From NCBI GenBank assembly GCA_041742135.1, contig JBGSJG010000001.1, positions 3,151 through 67,150 on the forward strand: a DNA stretch of 64,000 nt. Reading direction: 5' to 3'. The position numbers and the translations under genes are program-made. Under the pieces are notes generated by a model. The model saw only the letters and a program-made list of their open reading frames with translations. It did not search any database and was not told the origin of the DNA. The DNA comes from Patescibacteria group bacterium (lineage in GTDB: Bacteria > Patescibacteriota > Microgenomatia > UBA8517). Shown here in pieces: positions 906 through 64,000 of this stretch (position 1 is its first letter; each line of letters begins with the position of its first letter).

Positions 906-1470
906 AAAATTTGGGTTTTTCTTTACAGTTAAATATATCGACAAAAACATCGAGGCCTATCGAGAAGTGTTAAAAGCTACAGATAAGCTTGGTGCTCAAA
1001 TGTATAATTCAAAACTTATTGAAGACTATCCAAAGTCAGTAAGCAAATTAAAAAACGATGGTAAATCTTTGGTTGATGGTACACAAAGGCTACTGCGTTC
1101 TGTAGATTTCGTAATTTCCTTTTTCAGCGACAAATCACGCATTGTCTTTTTGCAAACAATAATGGCGCTAGAGAACAAGACGCCAGCATTGTGTTTAGTC
1201 CATGAAAGTGCGTATAACAACTTTCCAGAAACTCTGCTTTCTTACGGCAAAGACTATGTAAAAGTTAGGAAATATAGTTCGACAAATCAGCTTCAGGAAA
1301 TTGTTACTGAATATATTGAAGATCTTGAACCCCCCAAACGAAGATTCAATGTTGTACTAAAAACAAAGACTTTAAAGCAACTTGAACAGCTAACCCGTGA
1401 GCTTGACATGACTAAGGCAGAACTATTAAGACGACTGATAGATAAAGAATACAGGAGGATGTTTGATTGA
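895..1470 (+). CDS. hypothetical protein; N-terminal nucleoside 2-deoxyribosyltransferase-like (Rossmann-like) region, C-terminal ribbon-helix-helix-like tail
   Basis: Pattern VDFVISFF..., ALENKTPALCLVHES resembles NDT/Rcl-like nucleoside-binding fold; C-terminal KTLKQLEQLTRELDMTKAELLRRLI is RHH-like; 11-nt overlap with upstream SDR gene. Confidence 0.35.
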   Translation: MKAKKFGFFFTVKYIDKNIEAYREVLKATDKLGAQMYNSKLIEDYPKSVSKLKNDGKSLVDGTQRLLRSVDFVISFFSDKSRIVFLQTIMALENKTPALCLVHESAYNNFPETLLSYGKDYVKVRKYSSTNQLQEIVTEYIEDLEPPKRRFNVVLKTKTLKQLEQLTRELDMTKAELLRRLIDKEYRRMFD

Positions 1471-1979
1471 TGAAAAAAAATGATGGTCAAAACCAAGTTC
1501 AGTTAGTTAAGGACTACGTCAGTAAGTGTCATAAAAAAGGTAAAACTGTTCTTATTGTCAAAGGTGTATTTGATCTTATCCACCCTGATCATATACAAAC
1601 ACTTGAGCGATTAAGCAAACTTGCCGATGAACTCATCGTCTTACTAATCCCTGATTGGGCTGCGTCACTCATAAAGCCTGGTAGACCTATCTTGCCAGAA
1701 TCTGCCCGACAAAAGGTTGTAAGTAACTTAAGACCTGTAAAAAAGTGTTTTATTGATTATGATTCACGAGATAGCAAAACGAATAAGTACTCTAAAGATA
1801 AAGATATCGAGCTGTTGAAACAAATTTCACCTGATATGTGGGCTTTAAGTGAAAACAACTTTTCCAAATTTGAAAAATATGATTTAGGTAAAATTGAGCT
1901 CATTAAGTATGAGGAAGGAGTGAATTATTCCACAACCAAAATTATTAGTAAGATTTTAGAAAAATATGCAAAAGCTTAA
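1467..1979 (+). CDS. cytidylyltransferase-like nucleotidyltransferase (RfaE domain II / glycerol-3-phosphate cytidylyltransferase family)
   Basis: HxGH motif in GVFDLIHPDH, downstream ESARQKVVSNLRPVKKC matching ERxxxLxxLxxVDxV pattern of CTP_transf_like family; 4-nt overlap with upstream gene. Confidence 0.6.
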   Translation: MMKKNDGQNQVQLVKDYVSKCHKKGKTVLIVKGVFDLIHPDHIQTLERLSKLADELIVLLIPDWAASLIKPGRPILPESARQKVVSNLRPVKKCFIDYDSRDSKTNKYSKDKDIELLKQISPDMWALSENNFSKFEKYDLGKIELIKYEEGVNYSTTKIISKILEKYAKA

Positions 1980-2817
1980 GAATTCCTTAATTTCCATTAT
2001 TATTCCTACTCACAACAGGGATTATATTTTGTGGAAAGCCATTCAAAGTATTCAGCAGCAAACTTACTCAAACTGGGAGTTGATAATAGTAGATGACAGA
2101 TCTACTGATGCAACCTACAAAATGATGCGTGAGTTCAAGCAAGACAAACGTATAAAATATATTCTTAATGAGTATAAACACAGTCCAGCCGGTGCCCGTA
2201 GATTTGGACAGAAAAATGCAAAAGGTGATCTGATTGCATACCTTGATAGCGATAACAGTGCTTCTAAATTGTGGTTACAAGAAATAGTCAATTTGTTTGA
2301 AAGCGATAGCAGTGCAGTTTTTGCGTATACCGCATTAAATTTTAAGGTTGATTATGTTGATAAGAATGAAAATATAGTAACACTGATTTCAGAAGTGAGA
2401 TTTGCGAACCCTCCTACAGTAGCCATGTTATGGTCTCATGAGTTTGAGGGAGATCCGAATGGTTTTGTTCACCGGTCTGATGTAGACAAAGCAATTGTCT
2501 GGGATGAAAAACTGGATTTGTATGAAGATTATGATTTTTCACTTCAACTTGCCAAGAAATACCCCAAGGGTATGCGATACATAAATCAAGCATTGGTGAA
2601 TTATGTCAGGAGATATGGTGAAGCAGGTATTTGCAACGATGCTACTTATAAATCTCTGTTGAAAAACCTTAAATACCTTAACAGAAAACACAGTAACCTC
2701 CCTCAATGGAACAAAAGTGACTGGCACAAAGAGGAAATAAGAAAGTTCAAAGAATTAGCTGACCAAGGACTAAAACCTATAGATAGGATATTGGCTAAGT
2801 ATGGAAACAAAAATTAA
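1966..2817 (+). CDS. family 2 glycosyltransferase
   Basis: Canonical GT2 N-terminus ISIIIPTHNRDYILWKAIQSIQQQTYSNWELIIVDDRSTD. Confidence 0.8.
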   Translation: MQKLKNSLISIIIPTHNRDYILWKAIQSIQQQTYSNWELIIVDDRSTDATYKMMREFKQDKRIKYILNEYKHSPAGARRFGQKNAKGDLIAYLDSDNSASKLWLQEIVNLFESDSSAVFAYTALNFKVDYVDKNENIVTLISEVRFANPPTVAMLWSHEFEGDPNGFVHRSDVDKAIVWDEKLDLYEDYDFSLQLAKKYPKGMRYINQALVNYVRRYGEAGICNDATYKSLLKNLKYLNRKHSNLPQWNKSDWHKEEIRKFKELADQGLKPIDRILAKYGNKN

Positions 2818-3682
2818 AAAGGCACTTCTCTATAATCCCAGCATTGGAATTGACGTCAAAAATATTACAGTCACTTCTCTACTTGGAGGAAAAGAATCCA
2901 GTATCTATAAAGTCACGAATCAAAATGACAAATGTGTTGTTGTAAAAATTCCAAAAACTGATTGGCAAAAGAGAGAGATCCATGTTTTTCGAGATTATTT
3001 AAGTAAACTTGATATCAGTACTCCAAGATTTTTAGGTGAGTACAATAACGAAGTTTTGATTATAGAGTTCTTAGAGGATTGCAAAACTTTAAACAAGCTG
3101 TCTTTGAGTGAACTAAAGCTTCTGAGAGAGTGGATTATTAATAAACATAGTAAGTCGTGCAAATTATTCACAAATGAATCAAGGAGTTTATTAAAACATG
3201 CTGAATGGATGGTGAATCATCCTATCAAGCAAATCTTAAGTAATAAAAGTATAGAATCTGATGTTAAAGGGAAGTTGTTAGAGTTGCAACCCAATTTACT
3301 TAAGGCATTAGACAAAATTGATCTGCCAATGGTGCTCGATCACTCTGATCTGGAAATCCAGAACTTACTTTTTGACACTAAGAAAGAGGATGTTTGTGTT
3401 TTAGATTGGGCAAATGCAATTAAGTCACCAGGTTTTTATGATATTGCACAATTTAGAAAATTAGCAAGACAATATGTTTCAAATGATGCCGATAGTTTAG
3501 TGTCCGAGCTAATGAAAGAAGTCGGACTCGCAGATAATAATGATCTATTGGAGACATTTGCACTTATAAAAGAAATCAATCTATTAAGTTATTATTTAAA
3601 AGAAAGAGGTGTAGAAAAAGATAATAAAAGTGAAATTGACTATGCGCGTAATATAATTACAGAATATGAAGAACAAAATTAA
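2801..3682 (+). CDS. phosphotransferase enzyme family (APH/choline-kinase fold) small-molecule kinase
   Basis: Brenner motif region VLDHSDLEIQNLLFD and downstream VLDWANA (D of DFG-like) typical of aminoglycoside-phosphotransferase fold kinases. Confidence 0.6.
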   Translation: METKIKKALLYNPSIGIDVKNITVTSLLGGKESSIYKVTNQNDKCVVVKIPKTDWQKREIHVFRDYLSKLDISTPRFLGEYNNEVLIIEFLEDCKTLNKLSLSELKLLREWIINKHSKSCKLFTNESRSLLKHAEWMVNHPIKQILSNKSIESDVKGKLLELQPNLLKALDKIDLPMVLDHSDLEIQNLLFDTKKEDVCVLDWANAIKSPGFYDIAQFRKLARQYVSNDADSLVSELMKEVGLADNNDLLETFALIKEINLLSYYLKERGVEKDNKSEIDYARNIITEYEEQN

Positions 3683-4121
3683 AGTTAGACTACGACTAAT
3701 AATTATCAAGGAAGAAAAGTTGTTGGCATATTATGATTCGATGGATGATTATTATTTCTACATTGGCGGTAAGCTTGAGTTTGGAGAAACCATTGAAGAT
3801 GGATGGAAAAGAGAAATTCAAGAAGAATTGGGCGACGATGTTGAATTCAAATTCAAGAAGATCTTATACATTAGAGATTTTATCCTCCCAGAGAAAAATG
3901 AACACAGCCTTGAGCTATTTATTTTAGGAGACATTAACAAGTTTATGGAGATAGATGAAAGACCAGATCCAGAATATGATGGCAAAAAGTGGCCAAAATG
4001 GTTGAATCTTAATAATTTGCCAGACAACCTCTACCCTAAGCCCTTAACTAAAAAGATCGTACAGGATTATAAAAATGGATTTCCAAACAGCGGAGAGTAT
4101 GTTGGCAGAATGGATAGTTAA
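3666..4121 (+). CDS. NUDIX hydrolase
   Basis: Nudix box GGKLEFGETIEDGWKREIQEELG (GX5EX7REUXEEXGU). Confidence 0.75.
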   Translation: MKNKIKVRLRLIIIKEEKLLAYYDSMDDYYFYIGGKLEFGETIEDGWKREIQEELGDDVEFKFKKILYIRDFILPEKNEHSLELFILGDINKFMEIDERPDPEYDGKKWPKWLNLNNLPDNLYPKPLTKKIVQDYKNGFPNSGEYVGRMDS

Positions 4122-4125
4122 GTAT

Positions 4126-5061
4126 CTATAAAGAAGCGAGTGTATTAACCACAGAGTTTAAAATAAGCTTGTCTCTGTTTAACTTTCCATTAGTAAAGTG
4201 TTGATAAGGGTCTTTTGTTTTTATTCCAAACTTCTTCTGAACTAACACTCCTAAGTCTGGGTATTCAGATGGAACTAAATCAGTCAGTGCTTTAGGTATT
4301 TCCAGATCAGTATCAATTGTAATTGACCTTTCCTGCTTCTCATTTTCTATTACACAAACGCTAAGACCAAAAGTGTTGTGTTTTTCATGCAAGATCGCAT
4401 TCCCGCTTTCAATAGAGACCAAAAACTTTGCTTTCTTATTTTTTATTTTCTTCTTCAAGTCTTCTAACCTGTTTATCGCACCTTGGTATGTTTCCTCGAT
4501 TGAATAAGGCTGCTCTGATATACCAGAGTCGGTTTTTACACCTACTACATTGCATCTATGTCCAAATTCTCGCAGCGCAAGAGAAGTGGCTGAAGTCTTT
4601 ATTATATTCTCAGAGCTAATATATACATTTGGCAAGCTTTTGTAGTAATCTGTGATTGCGTCAATTTTATTGTTTATTACAATTGGTTGCATAGCATTTA
4701 TTTCAGAATCGTAGCTAATTTCAGGAGCTGGGTTGAGCAAAAATATATCTCTGTTTAGTGTGAAGGCAAATCCCATCTCCATTAAACTATTTCCTCCAAT
4801 GTAGTTTTTAATTTCATTCTTATCGTAATTGAGAACCAAAATCCCTTCACTTTGTTTTATAAAATCATAATGTTTGCGGATGTAGTTATTTTCAACCTTC
4901 CTTTTGACAGCTTCTTTTGAAGATCCAGCCTCTTTATATCCTTGTAGTTCATTTGCACTTCCAGGCACATACACATTGAAGCCTTTTTCGGTAAGTCTAT
5001 CCTTCCACTCAAGCATCTCTTTGTGGAATTTCATGCTTCCACAGATTGTTATATTTATCAT
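4126..5061 (-). CDS. fusion protein: N-terminal nucleoside 2-deoxyribosyltransferase-like domain + C-terminal YjjX-type inosine/xanthosine triphosphatase-like domain
   Basis: N-term ICGSMKF...GILVLNY...GGNSLMEMGFAFTLNRDIFLL (NDT/DUF4406-like); C-term GISEQPYSIEETYQGAINR resembles YjjX GVPEQPFGSEETRxGAxNR. ORF-track start 5157 trimmed to internal Met (MINITICG) to avoid overlap with divergent CYTH gene. Confidence 0.45.
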   Translation of the reverse strand: MINITICGSMKFHKEMLEWKDRLTEKGFNVYVPGSANELQGYKEAGSSKEAVKRKVENNYIRKHYDFIKQSEGILVLNYDKNEIKNYIGGNSLMEMGFAFTLNRDIFLLNPAPEISYDSEINAMQPIVINNKIDAITDYYKSLPNVYISSENIIKTSATSLALREFGHRCNVVGVKTDSGISEQPYSIEETYQGAINRLEDLKKKIKNKKAKFLVSIESGNAILHEKHNTFGLSVCVIENEKQERSITIDTDLEIPKALTDLVPSEYPDLGVLVQKKFGIKTKDPYQHFTNGKLNRDKLILNSVVNTLASL

Positions 5062-5112
5062 CTCAAATATTCTAACATAGGCCGGGGGTTGCAGGGTGAT
5101 ATAATCAGATTT

Positions 5113-5691
5113 ATGTACACAGAATTTGAGGCAACTTTTACAAAAATTAATAAGCAAGAAATAAGAGAAAAGCTGAAAGCGATTGGCGCCAAACTAGAGC
5201 GGAAAGAATTTCTTCAAAAGAGAGTTGTCTTTAACCTTCCAAATGGTCATGAAATTGATGGTGGCTGGCTACGAGTTCGAGATGAGGGAGATAAAATTAC
5301 CATGAGTTTAAAGGTTGTTAAAGAAGGCAAAATAGAGGATCAAAAAGAAATCCAGCTTAATATAGATAGTTTTGATAATGCTGTATCACTTTTAGAAACA
5401 ATAGGTTGCGAAAACAAAGCATATCAAGAGACTAAGCGCGAGCTTTGGAAAATCGACGATATAGAAGTAACTATTGATGAATGGCCTTTCTTGGAACCAT
5501 TTGTGGAAATTGAGGGAAAGTCAGAGGCAGAAGTAAAATCTGTTTCTGAAAAACTGGATTTTGATTATTCACTAGCAAAGTTTTGTGCAGTGGATACGCT
5601 CTATGCAGAAAAATATGGTATTACAGAGGATAGAATAAACAATAACACTCCTAAAATTTTGTTTGGAGGGGCAAATCCTTTTACTGATTAA
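5113..5691 (+). CDS. CYTH-domain protein (class IV adenylate cyclase / triphosphatase fold)
   Basis: N-terminal EFEATFTKINKQEIREKL (ExExK-type CYTH motif) and overall 190-aa size; ORF-track start 5023 trimmed to Met at 5113. Confidence 0.55.
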   Translation: MYTEFEATFTKINKQEIREKLKAIGAKLERKEFLQKRVVFNLPNGHEIDGGWLRVRDEGDKITMSLKVVKEGKIEDQKEIQLNIDSFDNAVSLLETIGCENKAYQETKRELWKIDDIEVTIDEWPFLEPFVEIEGKSEAEVKSVSEKLDFDYSLAKFCAVDTLYAEKYGITEDRINNNTPKILFGGANPFTD

Positions 5692-6250
5692 GATACTCAG
5701 CCAATTTCTCCCAATAGCTTTCTACTTGTGCCCAATATTTAACCATGTCTTCTCTTGAAATTTCTGACTCCACTTTTCCATTATATCCATCTGGAATAAA
5801 CAATTCATTAATAGGTGTGTTTCCTTCTTTGTCTGTTTTTACTGCTTTTTTAGATATGATTCCTGTAACTTGGCTTGGGAAAGTGAGAGGTTCTTTGTTT
5901 GGTTCACAATATGCTAAACAACCTTTAATAGTTACACTTCTATCTGTTTTGCCTTCCATTAGTTTCAAGATGTCTTCAGAAGTGAGCCATTGGTTAATAT
6001 ATTTGATAAAAGGTCCTGGGAATCCATTTAGTGCATTGATGTACCAACCTGCATCAGTAAGGGCAACAGGTTTGCCTAATTTTTCAGCTGCAAATTTGGC
6101 AGAGTAGGAAGCAATTTTTTCTACATCAGTTGATTGAATTTCAGGAGTTTCAATTTTTTGTTGAATTAACTCAACATTAGAATTCTCAAGTACTTTCTGA
6201 GCAATTTCAAACTTATATTTATTTCCTGTTACAAAGATTATTTGTTTCAT
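5681..6250 (-). CDS. Ham1/RdgB-family non-canonical purine NTP pyrophosphatase (ITPase)
   Basis: IIFVTGNKYKFEIAQ N-terminus and TDAGWYINALNGFPGPFIKY core typical of Ham1/ITPA. Confidence 0.7.
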   Translation of the reverse strand: MKQIIFVTGNKYKFEIAQKVLENSNVELIQQKIETPEIQSTDVEKIASYSAKFAAEKLGKPVALTDAGWYINALNGFPGPFIKYINQWLTSEDILKLMEGKTDRSVTIKGCLAYCEPNKEPLTFPSQVTGIISKKAVKTDKEGNTPINELFIPDGYNGKVESEISREDMVKYWAQVESYWEKLAEYLNQ

Positions 6251-6253
6251 AGT

Positions 6254-6553
6254 TTACTTATTAGATTTTACTATTTTTTTAGTTACTTCACCCGCAAATA
6301 ATCTATATGCTGGACGTTTTTCTTTTGGGTACAGATAATATACTCCTAGTGTATCTTTACAATTCGGACAAATTAAATTCTTGTCAGATTGTTTTTCAAA
6401 ATCGACTATTCTGTCTAAATAAATTCGTTTTAAAATGCCTGGGCCATCTTTTTGATAATAAAAAAGATGAGTAGTACAAGACTCACAAGAAATATCATAA
6501 ACTTTTGAAGTTCCTCCTCTGGTTCTCCTAAATTTATCTTTTTTAATTTTCAT
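6254..6553 (-). CDS. small zinc-ribbon protein (CxxC...CxxC), hypothetical
   Basis: CESC...CPNC pair in 99-aa basic protein. Confidence 0.4.
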   Translation of the reverse strand: MKIKKDKFRRTRGGTSKVYDISCESCTTHLFYYQKDGPGILKRIYLDRIVDFEKQSDKNLICPNCKDTLGVYYLYPKEKRPAYRLFAGEVTKKIVKSNK

Positions 6554-6893
6554 TTATTTCAACCTTTATTCCCAGAACTCCATATTTTTCTTCATCTTCT
6601 TCAGAATAGTATTTTCTCATATCGTCGGACATTTTTTCTGGAGTATCGTCTTCGCTCCAACCAGCGTCGTTGCCTTTTATTTTTGAGAACATCTCAACAA
6701 AGTTTTTGAACTGATTTAAGTCAACGATTTTAGTATGAATACGTTCGTTTGTTTCTGTATTTGTAAAAACAATATTGTCTTCAACTTTCAACTTCTGTCG
6801 TTTTTCATCAAACAACCTGATTTCTATTGTTTTTTTGCCAGATTTAATTTTGTTAAATGGCTCTGGTCGCAAGCTCATTTGATGAGTGTTCAT
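6543..6893 (-). CDS. ASCH (PUA-like) domain protein
   Basis: MSLRPEPFNKIKSGKKTIEIR N-terminal pattern typical of ASCH domain. Confidence 0.5.
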   Translation of the reverse strand: MNTHQMSLRPEPFNKIKSGKKTIEIRLFDEKRQKLKVEDNIVFTNTETNERIHTKIVDLNQFKNFVEMFSKIKGNDAGWSEDDTPEKMSDDMRKYYSEEDEEKYGVLGIKVEINEN

Positions 6894-7552
6894 AGTGAGG
6901 AAATTATATCATCCAGTAAGTTTAATGTGGCTGAAGTTCGAGTTGACAAATCACCAGCTAAGGCATCTTTCCAAAGGCTTTCAAAACTTTCTGGTAGTTC
7001 CTCTAAATCATTAATTCTTCTAAAAGCAGTCGTACTTGGTGGTAATGGTTTATTGTTTGATAAATACAAGCCTCTAACTATTTGCCATAAAACATTTGAA
7101 ACATTGAAACCGATGGCTAAGTCATCGTCGTTTTGTTGAGCCGATTCGATTTTTATCTTTGCACTCTTTAGCCACTTTTTAACTCCAGTTATTTCTTTCG
7201 GATCTGGCTTGTAATTATCATAAATATCTTTAGCTTCATTAATTGCTTTTTCGGCAAAGTTGTCTTTATCAAATATCACTTTTGCATCTAGCCACTGGTA
7301 AACGTTCATTGGGTCGTCATGCATTTTTCGAATAAAACCATCTGACGTGTTTGTTTTGATCTCTACAACTATTCCTTCAATTAATTCTTCTTTAAAAGGT
7401 TGTTTTTCATTTGCAATAAGAAGCAAGTCTAAGTCTGAATTTTCAGATTGTTCATCTCTTGCAACACTACCCGTAACTAACAATGTAAGATTATTTTCAT
7501 TACTTCGATAAGTTGAAGCCAGTCTTTCAATTATCTGTTTGTGCTTAGACAT
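6890..7552 (-). CDS. Pol-beta superfamily nucleotidyltransferase (kanamycin/ANT(4')-like fold)
   Basis: LVTGSVARDEQSENSDLDLLLIANE = GS...D.D nucleotidyltransferase motif; 220 aa with helical C-terminal half. Confidence 0.6.
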   Translation of the reverse strand: MSKHKQIIERLASTYRSNENNLTLLVTGSVARDEQSENSDLDLLLIANEKQPFKEELIEGIVVEIKTNTSDGFIRKMHDDPMNVYQWLDAKVIFDKDNFAEKAINEAKDIYDNYKPDPKEITGVKKWLKSAKIKIESAQQNDDDLAIGFNVSNVLWQIVRGLYLSNNKPLPPSTTAFRRINDLEELPESFESLWKDALAGDLSTRTSATLNLLDDIISSL

Positions 7553-7554
7553 AG

Positions 7555-8523
7555 TTGAATTATATAATAAACCTCATGAAAATAATTCTAGGATCAAATA
7601 ACCATGACAAAGTTGAAATAATTAAGAAAGCATTAGAGCAACTACATTTGGAAATTGAGGTTGAAGGCGTGAAAGTTGCTTCTGAAATAACAGACCAACC
7701 TCTGGATAAAGAAACTACTTTAAAAGGTTCTCAAAACAGAGCTAGAAACGCTAGAAAGGCAAAACCAAATGCAGAATTCTACTTTGGCTTAGAAGGTGGG
7801 CTTCACGATTACGGAGAAGGATATCATCTTGTAACATTTGCTACTTTAATCGACAAAAGTGGTAATGAATATACTGGTGAAGGTGTAGAAATCCATCTCC
7901 CAGAAAAAGTTTCAGCGGAAGTTAAAAATGGTGGTTGGTTTGGAGAAGTAATTAGAATTTATGCAAAAGAGTATGACATTGATGAGAACTTAATTACAAG
8001 AGAAACTCCATTTATTGAAGCGATAGAAAGAGCATATGCAAATTACTTAAAAGCCAACGATAAACTTGCAGTCAGAAAAAAATCTATAGCTTTTATTTTT
8101 AATGAGGATAAAGAATTCTTACTAGTCCAACTTCAAACATACGGTCCAGACCATTGGAACATGCCTGGTGGTGGAATAGATGAAGGAGAAGATGCACAAA
8201 CTGCAATGAAAAGAGAATTGAAAGAAGAACTTGGCACAGACAAATTTGAAGTAATTGAAGAATCCAAGATTAAGAATCAATATGATTGGCCAGATTTTGT
8301 AATTGCGGACAGAATTGTTAGGAAAAATGAATATTTTAGCGGGCAGGAACAAACACAATTTATTGTTAAATTTACTGGCGTTAAAGATGAGATTAAAATT
8401 CAAGAAGAAGAAATAAAACAACACAAGTGGGTGAAATATGACGATCTAGAACAATACTTAATATTTCCTGACCAATGGGATAATTTCAAAGTTGTGGTTG
8501 AAACTTCATCATTTGAGCTATGA
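7555..8523 (+). CDS. fusion protein: N-terminal YjjX-type ITPase/XTPase (DUF84) + C-terminal NUDIX hydrolase
   Basis: N-term ILGSNNHDKVEI...ITDQPLDKETTLKGSQNRARNARK matches YjjX NPxK...GAxNRxxNA pattern; C-term Nudix box GGGIDEGEDAQTAMKRELKEELG. Confidence 0.6.
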   Translation: MNYIINLMKIILGSNNHDKVEIIKKALEQLHLEIEVEGVKVASEITDQPLDKETTLKGSQNRARNARKAKPNAEFYFGLEGGLHDYGEGYHLVTFATLIDKSGNEYTGEGVEIHLPEKVSAEVKNGGWFGEVIRIYAKEYDIDENLITRETPFIEAIERAYANYLKANDKLAVRKKSIAFIFNEDKEFLLVQLQTYGPDHWNMPGGGIDEGEDAQTAMKRELKEELGTDKFEVIEESKIKNQYDWPDFVIADRIVRKNEYFSGQEQTQFIVKFTGVKDEIKIQEEEIKQHKWVKYDDLEQYLIFPDQWDNFKVVVETSSFEL

Positions 8524-9014
8524 AATATCCCGTATCAACATTCTCATGGCAAGGCACAGATGTTACTAATACTTGGATAAAGACCACTGAGGTTGAAAAT
8601 TATTCTCCTATCACCCAAGCATACGCAGTTATTTTTAATGATAAAAATGAGATATTAATAGGTAGAGAGAAAGGTAAAGGCAAATGGTGTTTGCCAGGTG
8701 GTCATCCTGAAGATGGTGAGAGTTTAGTTGAAACTTTGTGTCGAGAAGTAGATGAGGAAGTTGATGTTGAAATTGATAATGTTAAGCCACTGGGAGTAAT
8801 TAAAGTAGAATTTGAAGATGCACCAAATAAACCTATTTATCAATCAAGATTTATAGCTAAACTGAAAAAACTGCTTCCTCAGACTCCTGATCCAGCAAAT
8901 AACAATATTTGGGAAAGAAAATTTGTTCCGGCAAAAGACATCAATGAATATGTTAAATGGGGTGAAACGGGGAAAGCAATGTTTAAAGATGCTATTGAAT
9001 TATCCGGACACTAA
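8520..9014 (+). CDS. NUDIX hydrolase
   Basis: Nudix box LPGGHPEDGESLVETLCREVDEEVDV. Confidence 0.75.
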   Translation: MKYPVSTFSWQGTDVTNTWIKTTEVENYSPITQAYAVIFNDKNEILIGREKGKGKWCLPGGHPEDGESLVETLCREVDEEVDVEIDNVKPLGVIKVEFEDAPNKPIYQSRFIAKLKKLLPQTPDPANNNIWERKFVPAKDINEYVKWGETGKAMFKDAIELSGH

Positions 9015-9107
9015 GGCAGCGGTGAGAATGTTTTGAAAAAAAACAACAAAATAGCCAACCTTCATGGGCTATTCTAGAGACCACGGTCTTGCCGCTAGAA
9101 TCTCAGC

Positions 9108-9176
9108 TGCGGGACAGGGACTCGAACCCCGATACCATCCTCCAGAGGGATGTGTCCTACCATTAGACGATCCCGC
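9108..9176 (-). tRNA. tRNA-Gln (anticodon CUG)
   Basis: Reverse complement GCGGGAT-CG-TCTAATGGTAGGA-CACATCC-CTCTGGA-GGATG...GGTTCGAGTCCCTGTCCCGCA folds as cloverleaf; anticodon loop CTCTGGA gives CUG; no encoded CCA. Confidence 0.85.
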
Positions 9177-9230
9177 AATATTAGATCGGCTAACTGGCAA
9201 GCTGTGCTTACCATTAGACGATCCCGCAAT
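9158..9230. repeat. direct repeat: ~22-bp copy of the tRNA-Gln 5' end (taccattagacgatcccgcaat) duplicated 51 bp away
   Basis: Identical 22-mer at 9158-9179 (inside tRNA) and 9209-9230; second copy does not continue into a tRNA. Confidence 0.7.
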
Positions 9231-40745: not shown

Positions 40746-41756
40746 TTAATAGTAAATTTTCTCGCCCTCTGAGATATCGGTAACTTCAATACTATCCTCA
40801 CCTTCCAAGCCTACTTGAACGTATTTTTTATCTTTACCTGCATTTACTAATAAATATTTCCCATCTTTGTCGCTTTTGACAAATTTTGAAGGCACATACA
40901 AAACGTCTTCTTTAGAAGAAAGCACAAAGGTTGCATCTCCGGTCATCCCAACTTTTAGCTTTTGCGCAAAGCCTGTACTGTTTAGTGAAAGGCGAATTGG
41001 GTAAACCGTTCCGCTCTCAGCGGGATTGGGGGCTGCCGAAACGGATGTAATGACCCCTTCAAATTCTTCGTCTTCAAACGCATCCAGAGCCAAAGTAGCC
41101 GTATCCCCAGCCTTAAAGTCATTAACCTCTGTCTGGTCAGCATTAACCAAAAAGTAAATAGTCGAAGGATTTACGACAACCACTTGAGGAGCCCCAGCCG
41201 TAATATTTACACCAGAAGACTCGGTATTTAATACCGCAACCACTCCATCAAATGGAGCAACTAACGTAGCATTTCTCAAGTCCTTTTGAGCGGCCACGAA
41301 AGCTTCGTAAGCTTTGTCTTTTGCGGTTTCTGCTGCAGTTCGCGTGTTTTTTTCTTCAAATGACTCGTCGCTATCATTGCCTTTCACTTCATCGTGTACC
41401 TGCGCCAAATTGGCTTCAGCAGCACGAAGGTTTGCCTGAGCCACTTGGAAAGCAGAATTAAGGACCGTCGTATCAAGCTTTATTAAAGCCTGGCCCTTTT
41501 CAACAGTGTCTCCCACTTTTACTCCCACCCAAGAAATCGTTCCGGAAGAATTAAACTGAAGCGAAGCGTAATCAGTCGCTTTTATCTCTCCTGTAAGAAC
41601 AAGAGTCTCCTCGACCGTTCCGCGCATGACTTCTGATTCTTCAAATGTTTCGCCATTACCGCGTGAGCGAAAGATAAAAAAGCCCACAGCAACAATTACC
41701 AAAATAATTGCAATTAATCTTTTTCGCCGCAATAAACCAGAAAATCGAGCTTTCAT
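40746..41756 (-). CDS. HlyD/MacA-family periplasmic adaptor (membrane fusion protein)
   Basis: N-terminal TM after MKARFSGLLRRKRLIAIIL, coiled-coil and beta-barrel segments; start trimmed from 41888. Confidence 0.65.
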   Translation of the reverse strand: MKARFSGLLRRKRLIAIILVIVAVGFFIFRSRGNGETFEESEVMRGTVEETLVLTGEIKATDYASLQFNSSGTISWVGVKVGDTVEKGQALIKLDTTVLNSAFQVAQANLRAAEANLAQVHDEVKGNDSDESFEEKNTRTAAETAKDKAYEAFVAAQKDLRNATLVAPFDGVVAVLNTESSGVNITAGAPQVVVVNPSTIYFLVNADQTEVNDFKAGDTATLALDAFEDEEFEGVITSVSAAPNPAESGTVYPIRLSLNSTGFAQKLKVGMTGDATFVLSSKEDVLYVPSKFVKSDKDGKYLLVNAGKDKKYVQVGLEGEDSIEVTDISEGEKIYY

Positions 41757-41814
41757 AGAATATAAGTATTGTACAACAATATGGCTTTTTTTGCAGTGTG
41801 AGTTAAACTTAAAC

Positions 41815-42675
41815 ATGGCAGAAGACCCCGATCCCAGAACAGATATAACAGATGCAGTTGCAAGAGCCAGACAAGATGTAATGGACAAACATGGTTGGGA
41901 CGGGTTAACCGAAGAACAAATTACAACTCAAGTAGAAGCCCATCCTGCAGTTATCGCGCAAAGAGAAAAGGATAAAATAGAGGGATACAGGAGAAAAGTA
42001 GGTGAAGCATTTGATACAGCACTAGATACAAGCCATGATGCACTAAATCAAAGGGTTATCGTTGATATGCAAAAACTAGAGAATGATGTTGAAGCAATTG
42101 ATCTAGAGACACAAGTTAAGGGTACAGTACCAAATGGGCCTGGAATTGTGACAACCGAACGAAATAAAGATTTTGAAATGCTTCTCGGTATTGTAATGAG
42201 TGAAAAACAAAGAAGAGAGGCCATCCCTTGGGACGACTGGGTAAGAATTCCACGAAGAAGTGAAGGCCGTGAGGAAAAAAGCCTTCGCACGATCCACTAC
42301 GAATATCACGACCGAATACTCCACCACGAACCCCAGCATGCAGAAGCATACAAGGGTAAGATAACCGATCCGAAAACCGGTGAGCCTGTAGACGATGAAG
42401 TCGGTATAGTTTTTGGGTTTCAAGTAGTCAAACCACAGAGTGGCAATCGATTTGACATCGTCCCATTCACTACCTACAACGGCCAAGTTCGCCTTCACGA
42501 CCTAATTGAGGCAACGGCGGCTCCAGAAGATTTGTCCAGAGCTGACAGGCGAGTTCTAGAGTTGCACGAAAGAAGATTGAAAAATGCAGGATTGATGCTT
42601 TCTGGGGAATCAATATTTAATCCCAACGACAGGGAAAGAATGTACGAAAGAAAAAGCCGCAATCATAATCGCTAA
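41815..42675 (+). CDS. hypothetical acidic soluble protein
   Basis: 286-aa ORF from MAEDPDPRTD; ORF-track start 41626 overlaps adaptor gene and was trimmed; no family recognised. Confidence 0.4.
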   Translation: MAEDPDPRTDITDAVARARQDVMDKHGWDGLTEEQITTQVEAHPAVIAQREKDKIEGYRRKVGEAFDTALDTSHDALNQRVIVDMQKLENDVEAIDLETQVKGTVPNGPGIVTTERNKDFEMLLGIVMSEKQRREAIPWDDWVRIPRRSEGREEKSLRTIHYEYHDRILHHEPQHAEAYKGKITDPKTGEPVDDEVGIVFGFQVVKPQSGNRFDIVPFTTYNGQVRLHDLIEATAAPEDLSRADRRVLELHERRLKNAGLMLSGESIFNPNDRERMYERKSRNHNR

Positions 42676-57609: not shown

Positions 57610-57625
57610 ATTAGTAACTTAATCC

Positions 57626-57649
57626 AAAAAAACAGCGCCCGAAGGCGCT
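57626..57649 (-). promoter_or_regulatory. leader hairpin plus U-run (terminator/attenuator-like) 17 nt upstream of rplC start
   Basis: Minus-strand AGCGCC-TTCG-GGCGCT followed by TTTTTTT; lies downstream of the promoter below, so within rplC 5' UTR. Confidence 0.55.
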
Positions 57650-57708
57650 AGCTAGCTTCCTTCAAACTAAACTTCGAGGTTACGGGCTAATCCACCTCAT
57701 GTGAGAGG

Positions 57709-57737
57709 ATTATATCAAATGAGGGGAGCTTAGGCAA
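57709..57737 (-). promoter_or_regulatory. sigma70-like promoter TTGCCT-17-TATAAT for the rplC-led ribosomal operon
   Basis: Minus-strand cTTGCCTaagctcccctcatttgaTATAATc; -35 at 57732-57737, -10 at 57709-57714. Confidence 0.55.
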
Positions 57738-57747
57738 GAAATACTCA

Positions 57748-58230
57748 CTAACAGAATAACAACCCAAGAGTTTTGTGGATTTCTTCACGAGATCCTTGTA
57801 AGGCGCATAGACCGTCAACTTTTTTCACTAACCTTGGAGCTGTTTCCTGAAGTTTCCTAATCCTATCTCCCCTGTTTAGTCCCTCGTTATCTGGTTCAAT
57901 GAACTGACCTGGAGTCAGACATAATATTTCACCGTCTTTTCTCAGCGCATATGTGTGGTACATTGGCTTACCTCCATCTCTCGACACGACAGCACCAGTG
58001 CTTATCTCAAACCCATATGGCAAAACATTGAGGGCTCGAGCCCAAAACCCGCACACAGGCATCTCACCATACTCCCTCTTGTTAAGATCAAATGCTGCTA
58101 AATAGTCCGGGAAGGCTGACAGGTTTTTTCTTCTATCAATTCTTTCCTCTTCCATGGCACCAACAATAGTATCCCGATTCTCAATAATCCAAGTATCAAC
58201 AGATAAAAGTCTTTCAGCGTTGAGTGACAT
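57748..58230 (-). CDS. hypothetical protein inserted between rpsJ and rplC
   Basis: 160-aa ORF, no recognisable family; interrupts universally adjacent S10-L3 pair. Confidence 0.45.
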   Translation of the reverse strand: MSLNAERLLSVDTWIIENRDTIVGAMEEERIDRRKNLSAFPDYLAAFDLNKREYGEMPVCGFWARALNVLPYGFEISTGAVVSRDGGKPMYHTYALRKDGEILCLTPGQFIEPDNEGLNRGDRIRKLQETAPRLVKKVDGLCALQGSREEIHKTLGLLFC

Positions 58231-58285: not shown

Positions 58286-58594
58286 TTACATCTTCACTTC
58301 AATCGATACTCCTGCTGGGAGATCGAGATTAGAAAGCATGTCAATTGTGCGCTCCGAGGGGTCTAAAATATCGATAAGTCTTTTGTGAACCAAAATTTCA
58401 AAATGTTCTTGGGCGTCTTTATGCTTAAAGGGCGACTCAAGTGTAGGGATAATTGTTCGCTTGGTTGGAAGAGGAATAGGACCGATAATTTTAGCACCAG
58501 AAGCCATAGCGCTGTCGAGAATTTTCGCAGCTGCTTCGTCTATGACCCTGTGGTCGTAGCTTTTTAGCTTAACTCTTAGTCTGCCTGCTGGCAT
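58286..58594 (-). CDS. rpsJ: 30S ribosomal protein S10
   Basis: RLRVKLKSYDHRVIDEAAAKI... Confidence 0.95.
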   Translation of the reverse strand: MPAGRLRVKLKSYDHRVIDEAAAKILDSAMASGAKIIGPIPLPTKRTIIPTLESPFKHKDAQEHFEILVHKRLIDILDPSERTIDMLSNLDLPAGVSIEVKM

Positions 58595-58636: not shown

Positions 58637-59833
58637 TTATTTAAGAATCTTGGCAATGGCTCCTGCCCCAACAGTGTGGCCACCTTCACGAATTGCAAAT
58701 CTCATACCTTCTTCCAAAGCGACTGGGACAATAAGTTTCACAGTCATCTTGGCGGAATCCCCCGGCATAATCATCTCAACACCTTCCTGCAGTATTACTT
58801 CACCTGTGATGTCAGCAGTTCGGATAAAGAACTGAGGCTTATAACCTGTAAAGAATGGCGAATGGCGTCCACCCTCGTCTTTGCTTAGAATATAAACTTC
58901 TGCTTCAAATTCTGTGTGAGGTGTAATTGAGCCTGGCTTAGCTAAAACTTGTCCGCGCTCGACATCGTCTTTCTCTTTACCTCTCAAAAGAACTCCTACG
59001 TTGTCACCAGCTTGTGTTTCATCAAGTGTCTTTCTAAACATTTCAAGACCTGTAACTGTAACTTTCTCTGTGGCCTTAAGTCCAACGATTTCAACTTCCT
59101 CGTTTACCTTCAAAACTCCGCGCTCAACTCTGCCTGTGACGACTGTACCTCGACCCTTGATCGAGAAAACATCCTCGACAGACATCAAAAATGGCTTGTC
59201 TGTTTCGCGAGCTGGCTCCGGAATATACTCATCGACCTTGTTCATAAGCTCCATAATCTGCTTTTCAGCTTCAGGGTCACCTTCCAAAGCCTTTAGAGCA
59301 CTCCCACGAATTACTGGAATCTCATCTCCTGGGAATTCATATTTCTTGAGAAGATCGCGTACATCTTGCTCAACCAAATCGACGATTTCAGGATCATCAA
59401 CTGTGTCGACTTTGTTAAGAAAGACAACCAATGCTGGGACGTTGACCTGTCTGGCCAAAATAACGTGTTCACGAGTCTGAGGCATAGGACCGTCTGCAGC
59501 AGAGATGACAAGAATAGCTCCGTCCATCTGAGCCGCACCGGTGATCATGTTCTTAATATAATCGGCGTGTCCTGGGGCATCGATGTGAGCATAATGCCTT
59601 TTCTCTGTTTCGTATTCAATGTGAGTAATATTGATTGTGACTCCACGCTCTTTTTCTTCAGGAGCATTGTCAATTTCATCAAATCTGTAAGCTTTATTTC
59701 CGGGAACGTGCTTGGAGAGAACTGTTGAAATAGCTGCAGTTAAAGTGGTTTTACCATGATCAACGTGACCAATGGTGCCAATATTAACGTGTGGCTTGGT
59801 TCTGTTAAATTTCTGCTTTGTGTCAGCGGCCAT
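58637..59833 (-). CDS. tuf: elongation factor Tu
   Basis: [22 protein letters not shown] motifs. Confidence 0.97.
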
Positions 59834-59895
59834 ATATGTATTATAAGTATTTTCTGGGCAAATTCAACTCCCGATTTCATCTCAGGATAAATGCA

Positions 59896-59924
59896 AGTAT
59901 ATTGAGGCCAAATAATTCTGTCAA
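59896..59924 (-). promoter_or_regulatory. sigma70-like promoter TTGACA-17-TATACT upstream of tuf
   Basis: Minus-strand cTTGACAgaattatttggcctcaaTATACTtgc; also TATAAT immediately before the tuf ATG. Confidence 0.5.
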
Positions 59925-59944
59925 GAGCTAAATTTGGTTAACGC

Positions 59945-60541
59945 CTAAGCATCCATGTGATCATAATCGGCCATGGACCATGAGGGGTATTCGCTGTATT
60001 TTGGAGCTAGAAGTTCGAGAGATCCCGTTGCGTTGGCTGGTACGAACAGTCTTGCATCTATGTATCTATCCTGGTGAGCATATGGGGCATGCTCAATCGA
60101 GCCAAAAAACGGCGTGTAAAGCGATGGGTAGTAGCAAATACTTACCGGCGTAGCCTGCACGCCTGTAGGATCAAAGATTAATCTTGTTTCTGGCATCGTG
60201 CCTGCTTCACCACTCGGCCCGACAAGCTCGAGCCAACAATGCGAGCTTGTCAGTGCCCACACCAGCCGCCTATCGGCCACAGAAGCTGGCAAGCTTCCTT
60301 CCGACAGAGCAACCATTGCTTGATTAAAAAAGCTTTCGCAATATTTTGGCCTCCAGTACTGACCGGTGGACCGATAAAGACCTTCCAAATAGCCAACGAT
60401 CGGTGTATCTGCCAATAATTGAGGGGTGAAAAATCCTAAATACTCTTCAAATGGAGGCATGTGGGTTGCCAAATAATCGGCAGGTAAATCTCGTTGGGTA
60501 TATACGATCTGGTCATAACCGGGGTGAACCGTTTCTACCAT
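59945..60541 (-). CDS. hypothetical protein inserted between fusA and tuf, locally higher GC
   Basis: 198-aa ORF, Trp/Tyr/Pro-rich, no family recognised; region noticeably more GC-rich than flanks. Confidence 0.45.
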   Translation of the reverse strand: MVETVHPGYDQIVYTQRDLPADYLATHMPPFEEYLGFFTPQLLADTPIVGYLEGLYRSTGQYWRPKYCESFFNQAMVALSEGSLPASVADRRLVWALTSSHCWLELVGPSGEAGTMPETRLIFDPTGVQATPVSICYYPSLYTPFFGSIEHAPYAHQDRYIDARLFVPANATGSLELLAPKYSEYPSWSMADYDHMDA

Positions 60542-60552
60542 GAAGTCAAAAA

Positions 60553-62718
60553 TTACGCAGCGTTCGCCATACCACGCTTGGCGATAATGTTTTCAGTGAT
60601 ATTCTTGGGTACTTCCTCATAGTGGGAAGGCTCCATGTAAAAGCTTGCACGCCCTTGGGTGATGGAACGTAGTGTTGTTGCATAACCACTCATTTCCGCA
60701 AGTGGCACAGTTGCGTTTATCGCCGTAAATATGCCTTTTTGTTCAGTTCCAGAGATTTGTGCGCGCTTACTGCTTAAGTCCCCGATGATGTCTCCCATGA
60801 AGTCTTCTGGTGTAGAAACTTCAACTTTCATAATAGGCTCAAGCATTACCATATCAGCTTGGCGTGCCGCGGTTTCAACTGCCATCGATCCCGCGATCTT
60901 AAAGGCAATTTCAGACGAGTCGACATCGTGGTAGGATCCATCAAAAACGGTGACTTTAAGATCCACCATCGGGAACCCTGCCAAGATTCCGTTTTCAAGC
61001 TTTTCAACTACACCCTTTTGAATTGGTGAAATGTATTCTTGAGGAATTGCGCCACCTTTAATTGCAGAAATAAACTCAAAACCTTCACCCCTACCTTTAG
61101 GCTCAACTTTGAGCCAACAATGGCCATACTGCCCGCGGCCACCGGTTTGCCTGATATACTTGCCTTCACCTTCGGCATTTTTCTTAATTGTTTCTTTGTA
61201 AGCAACTTGCGGGGCACCGATTGACGCTTCAACGTTAAATTCACGTTTCATGCGATCTACTAACACTTCAAGCTGAAGCTCTCCCATTCCCGAGATTATG
61301 GTTTGGGCAGTTTCTGGGTTACTTTTAATCTTAAAAGTTGGATCTTCGTCCGAAAGCTTGTTTAGTGCCAAGCCCATTTTCTCTTGATCTGTTTTAGTTT
61401 TAGGCTCAATTGCAAGAGAGATAACCGGCTCTGGAAATTCTATCGACTCCAAGAGAATTGGATGCGCCGGGTCACTAATTGAGTCTCCAGTTGAAGTGTC
61501 TCGAACTCCCACAACAGCCACGATTTCTCCTGCATAAGCTTCGTCAATAAGCTCCCTTTGATCAGCATGCATAAGAACGAGCTTTCCAATACGCTCAGAA
61601 GTTTGTTTACTTACGTTATACACGGCCTGGCCCGCCTTTACAGTCCCTGAATAAATTCGCATATAAACCAAGCGGCCTACGTGAGGGTCTGTTATGACCT
61701 TAAAGCCCAGTGCCGCGAGCGGCTCTTTGTTGTCGGTTTTGCGCTCTTCTTCAGCACCGGTTTTAGGATTAGTACCTTTGATTGACGGGACATCAATAGG
61801 AGAGGGCAAATACTCAACAACTGCATCAAGCATAAGCTGCACGGTTGCTGTCCTGTTGTCTCCACCCAAAATCGGGAAAAACTTGACGGCAATCACACCT
61901 TTTCTGATGGCTTTTTTAATGTCTGCCTCAGATAATTCCGCGCCTTCAAGATATTTTTGCAAAACCTCGTCGTCAAACTCAGCAACTTTTTCGATTAATT
62001 CCTCGCGGTACTTTTTGGCCGCTTCGAGCATATCTGCCGGAATTTCTTCTTCGGTAAGCTTGTTATCCTCAATAGCGGCATAGGTATAAGCCTTCATACG
62101 GAGAAGGTCCACCACTCCACGGTGGGCGTGTTCCTGCCCTATCGGCAAAATTACAGGGTGAGCATTAGCTCCAAGCCTGTCATGAATTGATTTGATGCTA
62201 CTTTCAAAATCCGCACCTATTAAATTAAGTTTGTTTAAAACACAAATGCGTGGAACGTGATAACGATCTGCTTGTCTCCAAACAGTTTCAGATTGGGACT
62301 CAACACCTGTTCTGCCATCAAACACCATAACTGCGCCATCCAAAACTCGAAGTGATCTTTCAACTTCAGCCGTAAAGTCAATGTGCCCGGGAGTGTCAAT
62401 TATGTTTATTCGATAATGTCCATTTTCAACTGAAGATGGTGACTGCAAATCCCAAAAGGTGGTAATGGCTGCAGAGACAATAGTAATTCCACGCTCGCGC
62501 TCCTGCTCCATCCAGTCGGTCGCGGTTGTTCCATCATCAACGGACCCCAACTTATAAGTCTTACCAGTTTCATACAAAATGCGCTCTGTGGTTGTGGTTT
62601 TACCGGCATCAATGTGAGCGATAATGCCGATATTTCGGATCTTTTCAAAAGGCACCAAGCGATCCTTGGTAATCGTACTGACGATGGCTGATTTTTTCTT
62701 GGTGACTTGTGCTGGCAT
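60553..62718 (-). CDS. fusA: elongation factor G
   Basis: [28 protein letters not shown] GTPase motifs; 5 domains. Confidence 0.97.
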
Positions 62719-62788
62719 ATCCGCTTACAAAAATAATCCCCTCACTGGGGAACTCAATTGTATCAAGCGAGCGTGGTAAAATCAATAA

Positions 62789-63073
62789 ATGAAAGAGCAT
62801 CTCACACGAATGATCTCCTTATTGATAGTTTGTCTGATTCTCTTCGTTGTGTGGGAGTTTTTGCTGTTTCTGAGAGTCGTACCTAGCACACTTAACCATC
62901 GCACAATCTCAAATTGCGAAAGCGCTCAATGCTTCCTTGGAACTACATGTGTTAATGATAAAAAATTATACGTACTCCGAGACACTGGCTTCATGGGCAC
63001 CTCACCATCAGAAACATATAGCTGTATATCTTGGATAGAAAATGGATTAATTAGCTTGGGTATTAAGCAATGA
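62789..63073 (+). CDS. small N-terminally membrane-anchored Cys-containing protein (paralog 1)
   Basis: TM helix ISLLIVCLILFVVWEFLLFL then Cys-containing domain with LYxxxDxGFMxT...C..W. Confidence 0.4.
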   Translation: MKEHLTRMISLLIVCLILFVVWEFLLFLRVVPSTLNHRTISNCESAQCFLGTTCVNDKKLYVLRDTGFMGTSPSETYSCISWIENGLISLGIKQ

Positions 63074-63339
63074 AATCAAACAATAAACATAATCAACTCG
63101 CTTTAATTTTTTTCTTCTTTATTGCGACATTTACCGTCTTGTCTTGGCAATTATATCTTTATTTTGCTTTCAATAAATCTTTTCTATCCACATGTCCGTT
63201 TGGAATGGTAGAAGTTAAGCAAACAAACAACGAGGCTGGTTTGTACAGGTTCCATGCTCCATATGGATTTATGGAAACAAATAGATGTAACGCGTGGATG
63301 ACTCCGGCCTTTGAGGCTTTTGGTATACAGCCATTTTAG
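63070..63339 (+). CDS. small N-terminally membrane-anchored Cys-containing protein (paralog 2)
   Basis: TM helix LALIFFFFIATFTVLSW then LYRFHAPYGFMETNRCNAW matching paralog 1 pattern; 4-nt overlap with paralog 1. Confidence 0.4.
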   Translation: MKSNNKHNQLALIFFFFIATFTVLSWQLYLYFAFNKSFLSTCPFGMVEVKQTNNEAGLYRFHAPYGFMETNRCNAWMTPAFEAFGIQPF

Positions 63340-63385
63340 CAATTTACCACGGTTCGTATTATATATTACAACCACAGAGGCCAAG

Positions 63386-64000
63386 TGCCGTTCATTTGCT
63401 GTGGATGGTATAATTGTTTCTGTGACAGAGAAAAAAACTCTCTTTAGTCGCAAAATCTTCGCAATTTTCTTTGCATTTTTGGCATTTCAGCTCCTGTTTT
63501 TCCCTTTTTATAACAACCAATTTGGCCACATAGCGGTTCCTATCTTTGGCACGATCGGATTTTTTTTGACAATACTTTCTGCCAACTTATCAAATTTAAT
63601 TATCGTACAAGGCAGAAGGTCTAGAATGTTTCTTGCTTCGGCTGCGTTCTCGGTTTTGTGTGCTGGCCTAAGTTTGTTTCGCGCAAGCACGATCGACAAC
63701 ATCCTGCTTTCATTTTTGTCTCTGCTTTGGTGGGTAATATCTTATTATCTTGCTATCGCTCCGAAATCTTTAGACTCACTTAGTAGCGTCCTCTTAGTTC
63801 CTATTGGAATTTTTAATTCTTGGGTCAAGGCCTCACAAATGCTTATATCTAAAGCTTCAAAACTTAAATCCTCCCAGTCAAAAATTAACTTCAGGTTTTT
63901 AATGTTGGCAATTGGCATTGTGATTACGATCCCTGTGGCGACAGTTATTATTCTTCTTTTGTCCTCTGCCGATCCGGTATTTCGCTTCTATGTTGAGAGG
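63386..64000 (+). CDS. polytopic membrane protein, partial (runs off window end); not in ORF track because no stop
   Basis: Open frame from GTG 63386 (or GTG 63401/63422) to window end; multiple hydrophobic helices (IFAIFFAFLAFQLLFF, MLAIGIVITIPVATVIILLL). Confidence 0.4.

Follow-up and report, generated by a model that had tools for sequence, protein, structure and literature searches.

What is a gene of 198 amino acids doing between fusA and tuf, and how is tuf expressed with that gene in front of it? The question arises from a 64,000-nucleotide stretch of a Patescibacteria group bacterium genome (contig JBGSJG010000001.1, positions 3,151 to 67,150 of the forward strand), which we call the window; the nearest genomes are Patescibacteria, namely Woesebacteria-like metagenome-assembled genomes. 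The spacer between the two genes, from the fusA stop to the tuf ATG, is exactly the interval 59834-60552. On the minus strand the order is fusA, the gene in question, tuf, rpsJ, a second orphan gene (ORF160), rplC and then the S10-spc-alpha row without interruption. fusA encodes elongation factor G (EF-G, 721 amino acids; 60553-62718, minus strand) and was identified from the list of open reading frames (ORFs) and by 76-90% identity to fusA at related Patescibacteria loci. tuf encodes EF-Tu (398 amino acids; 58637-59833, minus strand) and was identified from the same list and by comparison with relatives. Between them lies ORF198 (59945-60541, minus strand, with an ATG start), the sole long same-strand ORF in the spacer. 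A preliminary description of the locus had correctly noted this ORF, and had read it as a foreign gene that invaded a conserved operon.

Comparison with related loci indicates that ORF198 is an insertion. In the closest relative, a 277-kb JGI contig (L090; Ga0209542_10000063) whose fusA, tuf and rpsJ are 90%, 90% and 95% identical to those of the window, blastn detected two stretches of unbroken homology, one covering fusA (62720-60578) and one that begins at the tuf promoter and spans tuf and rpsJ (59910-58286), ending exactly at the rpsJ stop. Only the segment between, 59911-60577 on the minus strand, has no DNA homology to L090. The sequence TTGACTTC lies directly 3' of the fusA stop in L090 too, and the slot between fusA and tuf there holds a 77-amino-acid ORF unrelated to ORF198. 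Elsewhere the slot contains a 108-amino-acid ORF (L091) or is otherwise occupied (L101), and in most other relatives it is empty: within the clade whose fusA is at least 75% identical, 14 of 20 loci have a fusA-tuf spacer of at most 160 nucleotides, most of them 110-160. A homologue of ORF198 was sought in about 160 related fusA loci with tblastn and a family profile, and neither a homologue nor a remnant was found; no second copy was present in the window or in the related loci. ORF198 is thus not conserved at this position.

The slot bears no mobility signature: there is no integrase, tRNA or att repeat, and the flanking repeats are short and at chance level only. ORF198 itself has no endonuclease, transposase or integrase domain in Pfam or PHROGs, it had no match in phage and plasmid collections, and the fusA-tuf spacer contains no tRNA gene or known RNA family. 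A mobile element, a homing-endonuclease gene and an integrative cassette were each considered and rejected, given the absence of repeats beyond chance level, mobility domains, phage or plasmid matches and further copies. As judged from these alignments, ORF198 is a lineage-specific gain, an insertion relative to related genomes.

The answer to how tuf is expressed lies in the remainder of the spacer. The two promoter-like elements named in the preliminary description were both located on the minus strand: P1, TTGACA-17-TATACT, with 11 of 12 matches (59896-59924), and a second site beside the tuf ATG, TTGAAT-16-TATAAT (59840-59867). A terminator-like leader hairpin lies between P1 and the ATG (59869-59887, minus strand). 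Promoter-like sites in the window are not enriched overall relative to shuffled sequences (13 sites found, 9.2 +/- 3.2 expected), and we hold P1 to be real because it is conserved in relatives, not because of its match score. A promoter of the type TTGAC(A/T)-16 to 18-TATAAT lies 48-143 nucleotides 5' of tuf in 20 of 21 relatives, whatever the length of the spacer, and it is kept in relatives without any inserted gene, including those with bare spacers of 110-160 nucleotides. The spacers of L003 and L004 (fusA 76% and 78% identical, respectively; L004 is UBA5073), which have no insertion, align with the spacer between ORF198 and tuf in the window and share with it the order TTGACA-17-TATAAT-type promoter, hairpin, and TATAAT-like box near the ATG.

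The leader downstream of this promoter is conserved as well. An AGGGC/GCCCU hairpin followed by a U-tract lies 3' of the tuf promoter in 13 of 15 relatives, with a few compensatory changes; possible roles are those of an attenuator, of the fusA terminator or of a stabilizing 5' stem. At the second site, only 6 nucleotides separate the -10 TATAAT from the tuf ATG and no Shine-Dalgarno sequence is present, suggesting that the tuf mRNA may lack a leader or carry only a very short one. TATAAT-like boxes 7-11 nucleotides from the tuf ATG are also found in L003, L004, L090 and L099. Taken at the level of sequence, the tuf promoter is ancestral in the clade and older than the insertion of ORF198.

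The same arrangement recurs at the second insertion. ORF160 (57748-58230, minus strand, from the ORF list) lies between rpsJ (encoding S10; 58286-58594, minus strand, from the ORF list and comparison with relatives) and the promoter of rplC (encoding L3; 56926-57609, minus strand), the first gene of the uninterrupted S10-spc-alpha row. That promoter (TTGCCT-17-TGaTATAAT) and a structured leader occupy 57610-57737 of the minus strand. The leader is about 95 nucleotides long (CGTGGAGGTG ... CCAC ... GGAAGTGCC ...) and ends in a GC hairpin (57650-57633) and a run of seven T residues directly before the rplC ATG. A GUGCC upstream within it is a possible pairing partner for the terminator's 3' arm, as an antiterminator would be, and the leader is a candidate ribosomal-protein attenuator; it matched no family in Rfam. 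Promoter and leader are conserved in 9 of 11 related loci. They are kept in the window, in L004 (9805-9950), which has no insertion, in L003 (10330-10470), which has a different gene there, encoding a DUF7736 protein, and in six further relatives (L093, L094, L097, L099, L139 and L148). By the same comparison, the rplC promoter and leader are ancestral, and ORF160 too sits at an existing transcription-unit boundary. In this clade the conserved leaders of both tuf and rplC, each with its promoter and hairpin, are candidates for regulatory RNAs that Rfam lacks.

ORF160 is not a copy of ORF198; a relationship between the two was rejected, with no similarity detected by hhalign. Searches of family libraries, Pfam, NCBIfam, PHROGs and PADLOC among them, gave no useful match for ORF160. 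Its one distant homologue, P0009, is 41% identical over 108 amino acids and lies in an unrelated gene context; the two proteins share a Cys-Gly, a His and a TPGQFIEPDN...GDRIR block.

Because these promoters are present in relatives without the insertions, they predate them, and therefore both orphan genes entered existing transcription-unit boundaries and not operon interiors. We conclude that ORF198 is probably a real, recently gained accessory gene, sitting in a slot of variable content where the fusA unit ends, directly upstream of a tuf promoter and leader found clade-wide. The event is an ordinary one, a gene gained by one lineage at the edge of an operon, where tolerance of insertions is expected; an insertion at such a boundary lengthens the upstream transcript and leaves the promoter of the downstream gene untouched.

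How ORF198 would be expressed follows the same layout. The 11-nucleotide spacer between fusA and ORF198 (60542-60552, minus strand; TAA-TTTTTGACTTC-ATG) was scanned and contains no promoter, no terminator and no Shine-Dalgarno sequence, and upstream of the ORF198 start there is a single weak promoter-like match, 9 of 12, inside the fusA coding sequence. Because the spacing is so short and no strong promoter-like site or terminator intervenes, ORF198 is likely to be co-transcribed with fusA, by read-through from the fusA promoter. A promoter-like site for fusA, TTGATT-17-(TGa)TACAAT with a short hairpin and T-run after it, lies just 5' of the fusA ATG (62737-62785, minus strand), and 34 nucleotides of this region (62788-62755) are 88% identical in L090. 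ORF198 would be translated from its ATG without a Shine-Dalgarno sequence; a Shine-Dalgarno-like motif precedes only 18 of 49 window genes. An N-terminal HPG motif present in four of the seven aligned family sequences supports the annotated ATG as the start. Expression of tuf would start at one or more ancestral promoters of its own and, since these lie downstream of the insertion, would be unaffected by it.

What does the gene encode? An exhaustive HMMER search of 1.8 billion representative sequences returned five distant homologues of 161-214 amino acids, with E-values of 1.7e-7 to 4e-4. A word-indexed protein search with ORF198 recovered only ORF198 itself, and one with the family profile recovered three relatives (P0004, P0005 and P0007), of which P0007 alone was new. 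The family comprises eight known sequences, none of them annotated, and the exact ORF198 sequence is known only from this genome and two short Logan contigs; sequencing runs SRR28170473 and SRR28170474 contain the locus. Ten residues other than the start Met are invariant in the family alignment: W63, P65, C68, H101, D124, P125, G127, P144, F146 and G147. The ratio of nonsynonymous to synonymous substitution rates (dN/dS) between two family members is 0.14, indicating that the family is under purifying selection. On inspection by eye, no hydrophobic segment was noticed in ORF198.

The homologues reside in other contexts, after dnaG in L083-L085 and after tmk in L086-L088. In L083-L087 the homologue closes a run of same-strand genes and is followed by a convergent gene; L088 ends just past the homologue. 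ORF198 shares this operon-tail position. There is no conserved neighbor gene across these contexts, and the neighboring genes of the homologues had no match in the collected loci by tblastn. These positions argue that the ORF198 family is not tied to translation genes yet recurs at operon tails, and the family looks like a passenger that operon ends can tolerate, and not like a factor specific to translation.

A predicted structure points to a possible activity. The AlphaFold2 model of the core, residues 28-172, has a predicted local distance difference test score (pLDDT) of 79.2 and a predicted template-modeling score of 0.78, and contains, in order, a helix (68-81) and four strands (92-97, 102-107, 120-129 and 142-148). 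Cys68 opens the helix, His101 directly precedes the second strand and Asp124 lies within the third; the three invariant codons are at 60338-60340, 60239-60241 and 60170-60172 of the minus strand, respectively. Papain-like cores consist of an alpha-helix with a Cys at its N-terminus followed by an antiparallel sheet of four to five strands, the second strand bearing a His and the third a further polar residue (PMC10318531). The ORF198 model fits this description in the order of its helix and strands, in the Cys at the helix start and in the placement of His at the start of the second strand and of Asp on the third. By its Cys-His-Asp order and their placement in the model, ORF198 resembles the transglutaminase-like members of the papain-like superfamily (factor XIII, TG2, PNGase and the LapG-type BTLCP). 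We consider the chance that it works like a papain-like thiol enzyme to be slightly better than even. ORF198 would then be a soluble protein in which Cys68 is the nucleophile, acting with His101 and Asp124 in a papain- or transglutaminase-like core, and it would serve as a peptidase, amidase or acyl-transferase through thiol-dependent hydrolysis or transfer.

Motifs of the type H-x-W-x-E and D-(P/S)-T can be seen around these residues in the family alignment. The H-C-W-x-E and D-P-T motifs of ORF198 are like those of factor XIII, with HCWLELV and lIfDPTG in ORF198 resembling HCWNEAW and aVDSTP in factor XIII (the factor XIII fragment used in the comparison was checked against the PDB). The spacing is 33 residues from Cys to His and 23 from His to Asp in ORF198; taking the factor XIII residues to be Cys314, His373 and Asp396, the corresponding spacings there would be 59 and the same 23. 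Nearly all of the top Foldseek matches in the PDB, none of them significant, are papain-fold cysteine hydrolases: PaTox, tegument-like deubiquitinases, Tse1/Tae1 and MCF. ORF198 differs from established papain-like members in being smaller, with a core of about 100 amino acids, and in belonging to a family of eight sequences with no Pfam model and no significant match. The family is tiny and unannotated, has a clean Cys-His-Asp signature, and is a candidate new papain-like family.

Several results weigh against the combined reading of ORF198 as a recent gain with a thiol-enzyme fold. The direction of change is set by parsimony, which favors a gain here over a loss elsewhere, and the composition and codon usage of the gene carry a weak signal of horizontal origin. 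The full-length AlphaFold2 model is poor (pLDDT 52) and the core model was built on only seven sequences. The best Foldseek match of the core model in the PDB has an E-value of 0.95, with template-modeling scores of at most 0.35, and is not significant; Foldseek with the full-length model, and a search of the viral set with the core model, likewise gave nothing significant. An hhalign comparison of the family with the factor XIII core placed HCWLELV on HCWNEAW with an E-value of 0.11 and a probability of 0.5%. ORF198 and the family members had no useful match in Pfam, NCBIfam, PHROGs or PADLOC, and searches of the PDB with the single sequence and with the family profile found none. No significant similarity in sequence, profile or structure was detected to any established member of the papain-like superfamily (SCOP d.3 / Pfam clan Peptidase_CA, CL0125). 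Six family members scanned against Transglut_core (PF01841) gave no match at E-values up to 10. Given the hhalign E-value, we do not file ORF198 under Transglut_core, and since no sequence or fold match is significant, the assignment as a thiol enzyme is inferred. For a comparison profile, transglutaminase-like proteins were also sought in the DNA of the collected loci with a regular expression, and none was found.

Could the invariant Cys, His and Asp instead bind a metal, or play a structural part, in a small protein that is no enzyme but has a binding, regulatory or antitoxin-like role? The lack of significant similarity to any enzyme family favors this, as do the small modules in the neighboring slots of L090, which are like toxin-antitoxin pairs by family only: the rpsG/fusA junction of that contig holds a DUF2283 ORF and a second small ORF, the rpsJ/rplC junction a DUF5678 ORF beside an aspartyl-protease-like ORF, and from their families these pairs look like toxin-antitoxin modules. 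However, the order of the three residues in ORF198 and their placement on secondary structure match a papain-like core exactly, and ORF198 has no partner gene and no PADLOC match. We therefore think a non-enzymatic role unlikely. A defense or toxin-antitoxin module in particular is not supported, as ORF198 has neither a PADLOC match nor a conserved partner; one homologue had a single weak PADLOC match (E-value 0.005).

A broader proposal is that the rpsG/fusA, fusA/tuf and rpsJ/rplC boundaries of this clade, each with a conserved promoter and leader hairpin, are recurrent landing pads for orphan genes, which are then expressed by read-through, and that ORF198 is the first recognized member of a new and very rare papain-like (transglutaminase-like) family of thiol enzymes that spread as operon-tail passengers, perhaps with its co-expressed translation factors as targets. 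Taken as a whole we find this doubtful. The junctions themselves do turn over. The preliminary description took fusA and tuf to be normally contiguous, which does not hold for this phylum: the fusA-tuf spacer exceeds 350 nucleotides in 38 of 48 Patescibacteria-like loci and reaches 4.5 kb, compared with 32-97 nucleotides in ten non-Patescibacteria loci. The spacer ORFs are mostly on the same strand, and 91 of them fall into 74 clusters, few of which have a Pfam domain (DUF998, APH and DUF7736). As homologues of ORF198 or ORF160, the other gap ORFs of Patescibacteria were rejected by hmmsearch and phmmer. The earlier suggestion of a tolerated class of operon-invading genes thus survives as positional hot spots with unrelated cargo, but not as a class of related invaders.

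Such slots are like variable intergenic hot spots in having conserved flanks and a cargo that differs between close relatives, and are unlike them in that the fusA-tuf slot has no integrase, tRNA or att repeats. The fusA-tuf-rpsJ-rplC row of Patescibacteria is far less compact than the textbook arrangement, its junctions turning over lineage-specific and mostly unannotated genes, and this turnover matters wherever marker-gene synteny is used in binning or annotation. No relevant paper emerged from a literature search on interrupted fusA-tuf pairs in the Candidate Phyla Radiation.

A third possibility is that ORF198 is tied to translation, as a thiol peptidase or transglutaminase-like enzyme that processes or modifies EF-G, EF-Tu or a ribosomal protein, much as Prp processes L27. 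Prp, a ribosomal-processing cysteine protease of Firmicutes and their relatives, is encoded by a gene that lies between rplU and rpmA; its position is conserved across whole phyla, and it has a His-then-Cys dyad and a different fold. ORF198 is like Prp in being a small gene, here for a predicted cysteine enzyme, between two same-strand translation genes, directly 3' of fusA and probably co-transcribed with it, and the predicted Cys-His-Asp core would suit such a role. In contrast to Prp, however, ORF198 occurs in one lineage only, its conserved residues come in the order Cys-His-Asp, and its homologues lie after dnaG or tmk and not beside translation genes. Moreover, its closest relatives do without it, and no Pfam match was obtained, the Prp family included, at E-values up to 1-10; NCBIfam gave no match to the Prp family either. 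We regard a dedicated role in translation as improbable.

An equally small probability attaches to ORF198 being ancestral at this position and having been lost or replaced in all sampled relatives. The other ORFs in the slots of L090, L091 and L101 reflect turnover, and replacement is possible. But the roughly 160 loci searched by tblastn and profile contain no remnant of ORF198, 14 of the 20 close-clade spacers are no longer than 160 nucleotides, and the family members elsewhere are in unrelated contexts, all of which speak against this reading.

The model put forward in the preliminary description was that a foreign gene invaded the fusA-tuf operon and cut off tuf, after which a new promoter arose in compensation, with the same sequence of events at rpsJ-rplC. 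ORF198 is indeed an insertion relative to its relatives, it is followed by a strong promoter-like site, and its guanine-plus-cytosine (GC) content is slightly raised. The same tuf promoter and leader, however, are present in the 20 of 21 relatives noted above, bare spacers included, and the rplC promoter and leader also occur in relatives without an insertion. The idea of compensating promoters is refuted by these comparisons, and we consider the model as a whole decidedly improbable. Of the two insertions that it placed in conserved operons, both exist and are independent and unrelated, and ORF198 and ORF160 do interrupt the fusA-tuf-rpsJ-rplC row, but they do so at transcription-unit boundaries.

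A promoter in front of tuf has a precedent in the str operon of E. coli, where tufA has an internal or secondary promoter. The present case is like that one in that tuf does not depend on upstream read-through alone but has a promoter to itself, and differs in that the promoter is intergenic, is followed by a conserved terminator-like hairpin and is kept throughout this Patescibacteria clade. The row also departs from the classical str operon, in which rpsL, rpsG, fusA and tuf adjoin one another and are co-transcribed, in having no rpsG 5' of fusA and a gene between fusA and tuf.

The compositional case for foreign origin, made in the same description, fares little better. The GC content of ORF198 is 48.7%, above that of its neighbors fusA (45.3%) and tuf (44.5%), as had been claimed, and above the mean of the window genes (41.3%, standard deviation 4.4); it ranks first among 82 window ORFs, with rplB nearly equal at 48.6%, and the excess over the two neighbors is 3-4 points. 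GC content at third codon positions is 45.7%, compared with a mean of 36.4% (standard deviation 6.4). Pro (9.1%) and Tyr (8.1%) are each the highest of the 82 ORFs, and GC content at second codon positions is raised; the protein is therefore Pro- and Tyr-rich as described, but has only four Trp residues (rank 10). The synonymous codon usage of ORF198 ranks 10 of 82 and is no outlier for so short a gene. The GC excess is thus real but small and partly due to amino-acid content, and because codon usage is ordinary as well, the compositional argument for a foreign gene is weak.

Finally, that ORF198 is a chance or decaying ORF with no functional protein, as its exact sequence being limited to this genome and two short Logan contigs might suggest, is scarcely credible given the ten invariant residues shared with distant homologues, the conserved (though not invariant) HPG motif, the dN/dS of 0.14 in the family and the intact frame that fills the slot.

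On the other side of fusA, the window also departs from the related loci. rpsG does not lie 5' of fusA; in its place are opposite-strand ORFs and the promoter-like site described above. L003 and L004 have rpsL-rpsG 30 nucleotides before fusA and still have the tuf promoter. Two small hydrophobic ORFs on the plus strand (62789-63073 and 63070-63339) occupy the region upstream of fusA in the window (62719-64000), which has a GC content of 34-38%.

Across the Patescibacteria fusA loci L005-L082, lengths of 0.4-4.5 kb are common for the fusA-tuf, tuf-rpsJ and rpsJ-rplC spacers, whose ORFs are unrelated and for the most part without a Pfam domain. Directly 5' of tuf, a few small families turn up repeatedly, for example in L018, L049, L058, L060, L068 and L081.

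Two further regions of the window stand out in composition. The ORF at 42103-42498 on the minus strand deviates in codon usage more than any other ORF of the window, with a GC fraction at third positions of 0.61; a longer ORF on the plus strand (41626-42675) overlaps it, and it is unlikely to be a real gene. At the start of the window, the genes at 93-9014 have GC contents of 28-36%, compared with 40-49% elsewhere, and a tRNA-Gln gene (9106-9177) lies at the transition; the segment 1-9177 may be an integrated island.

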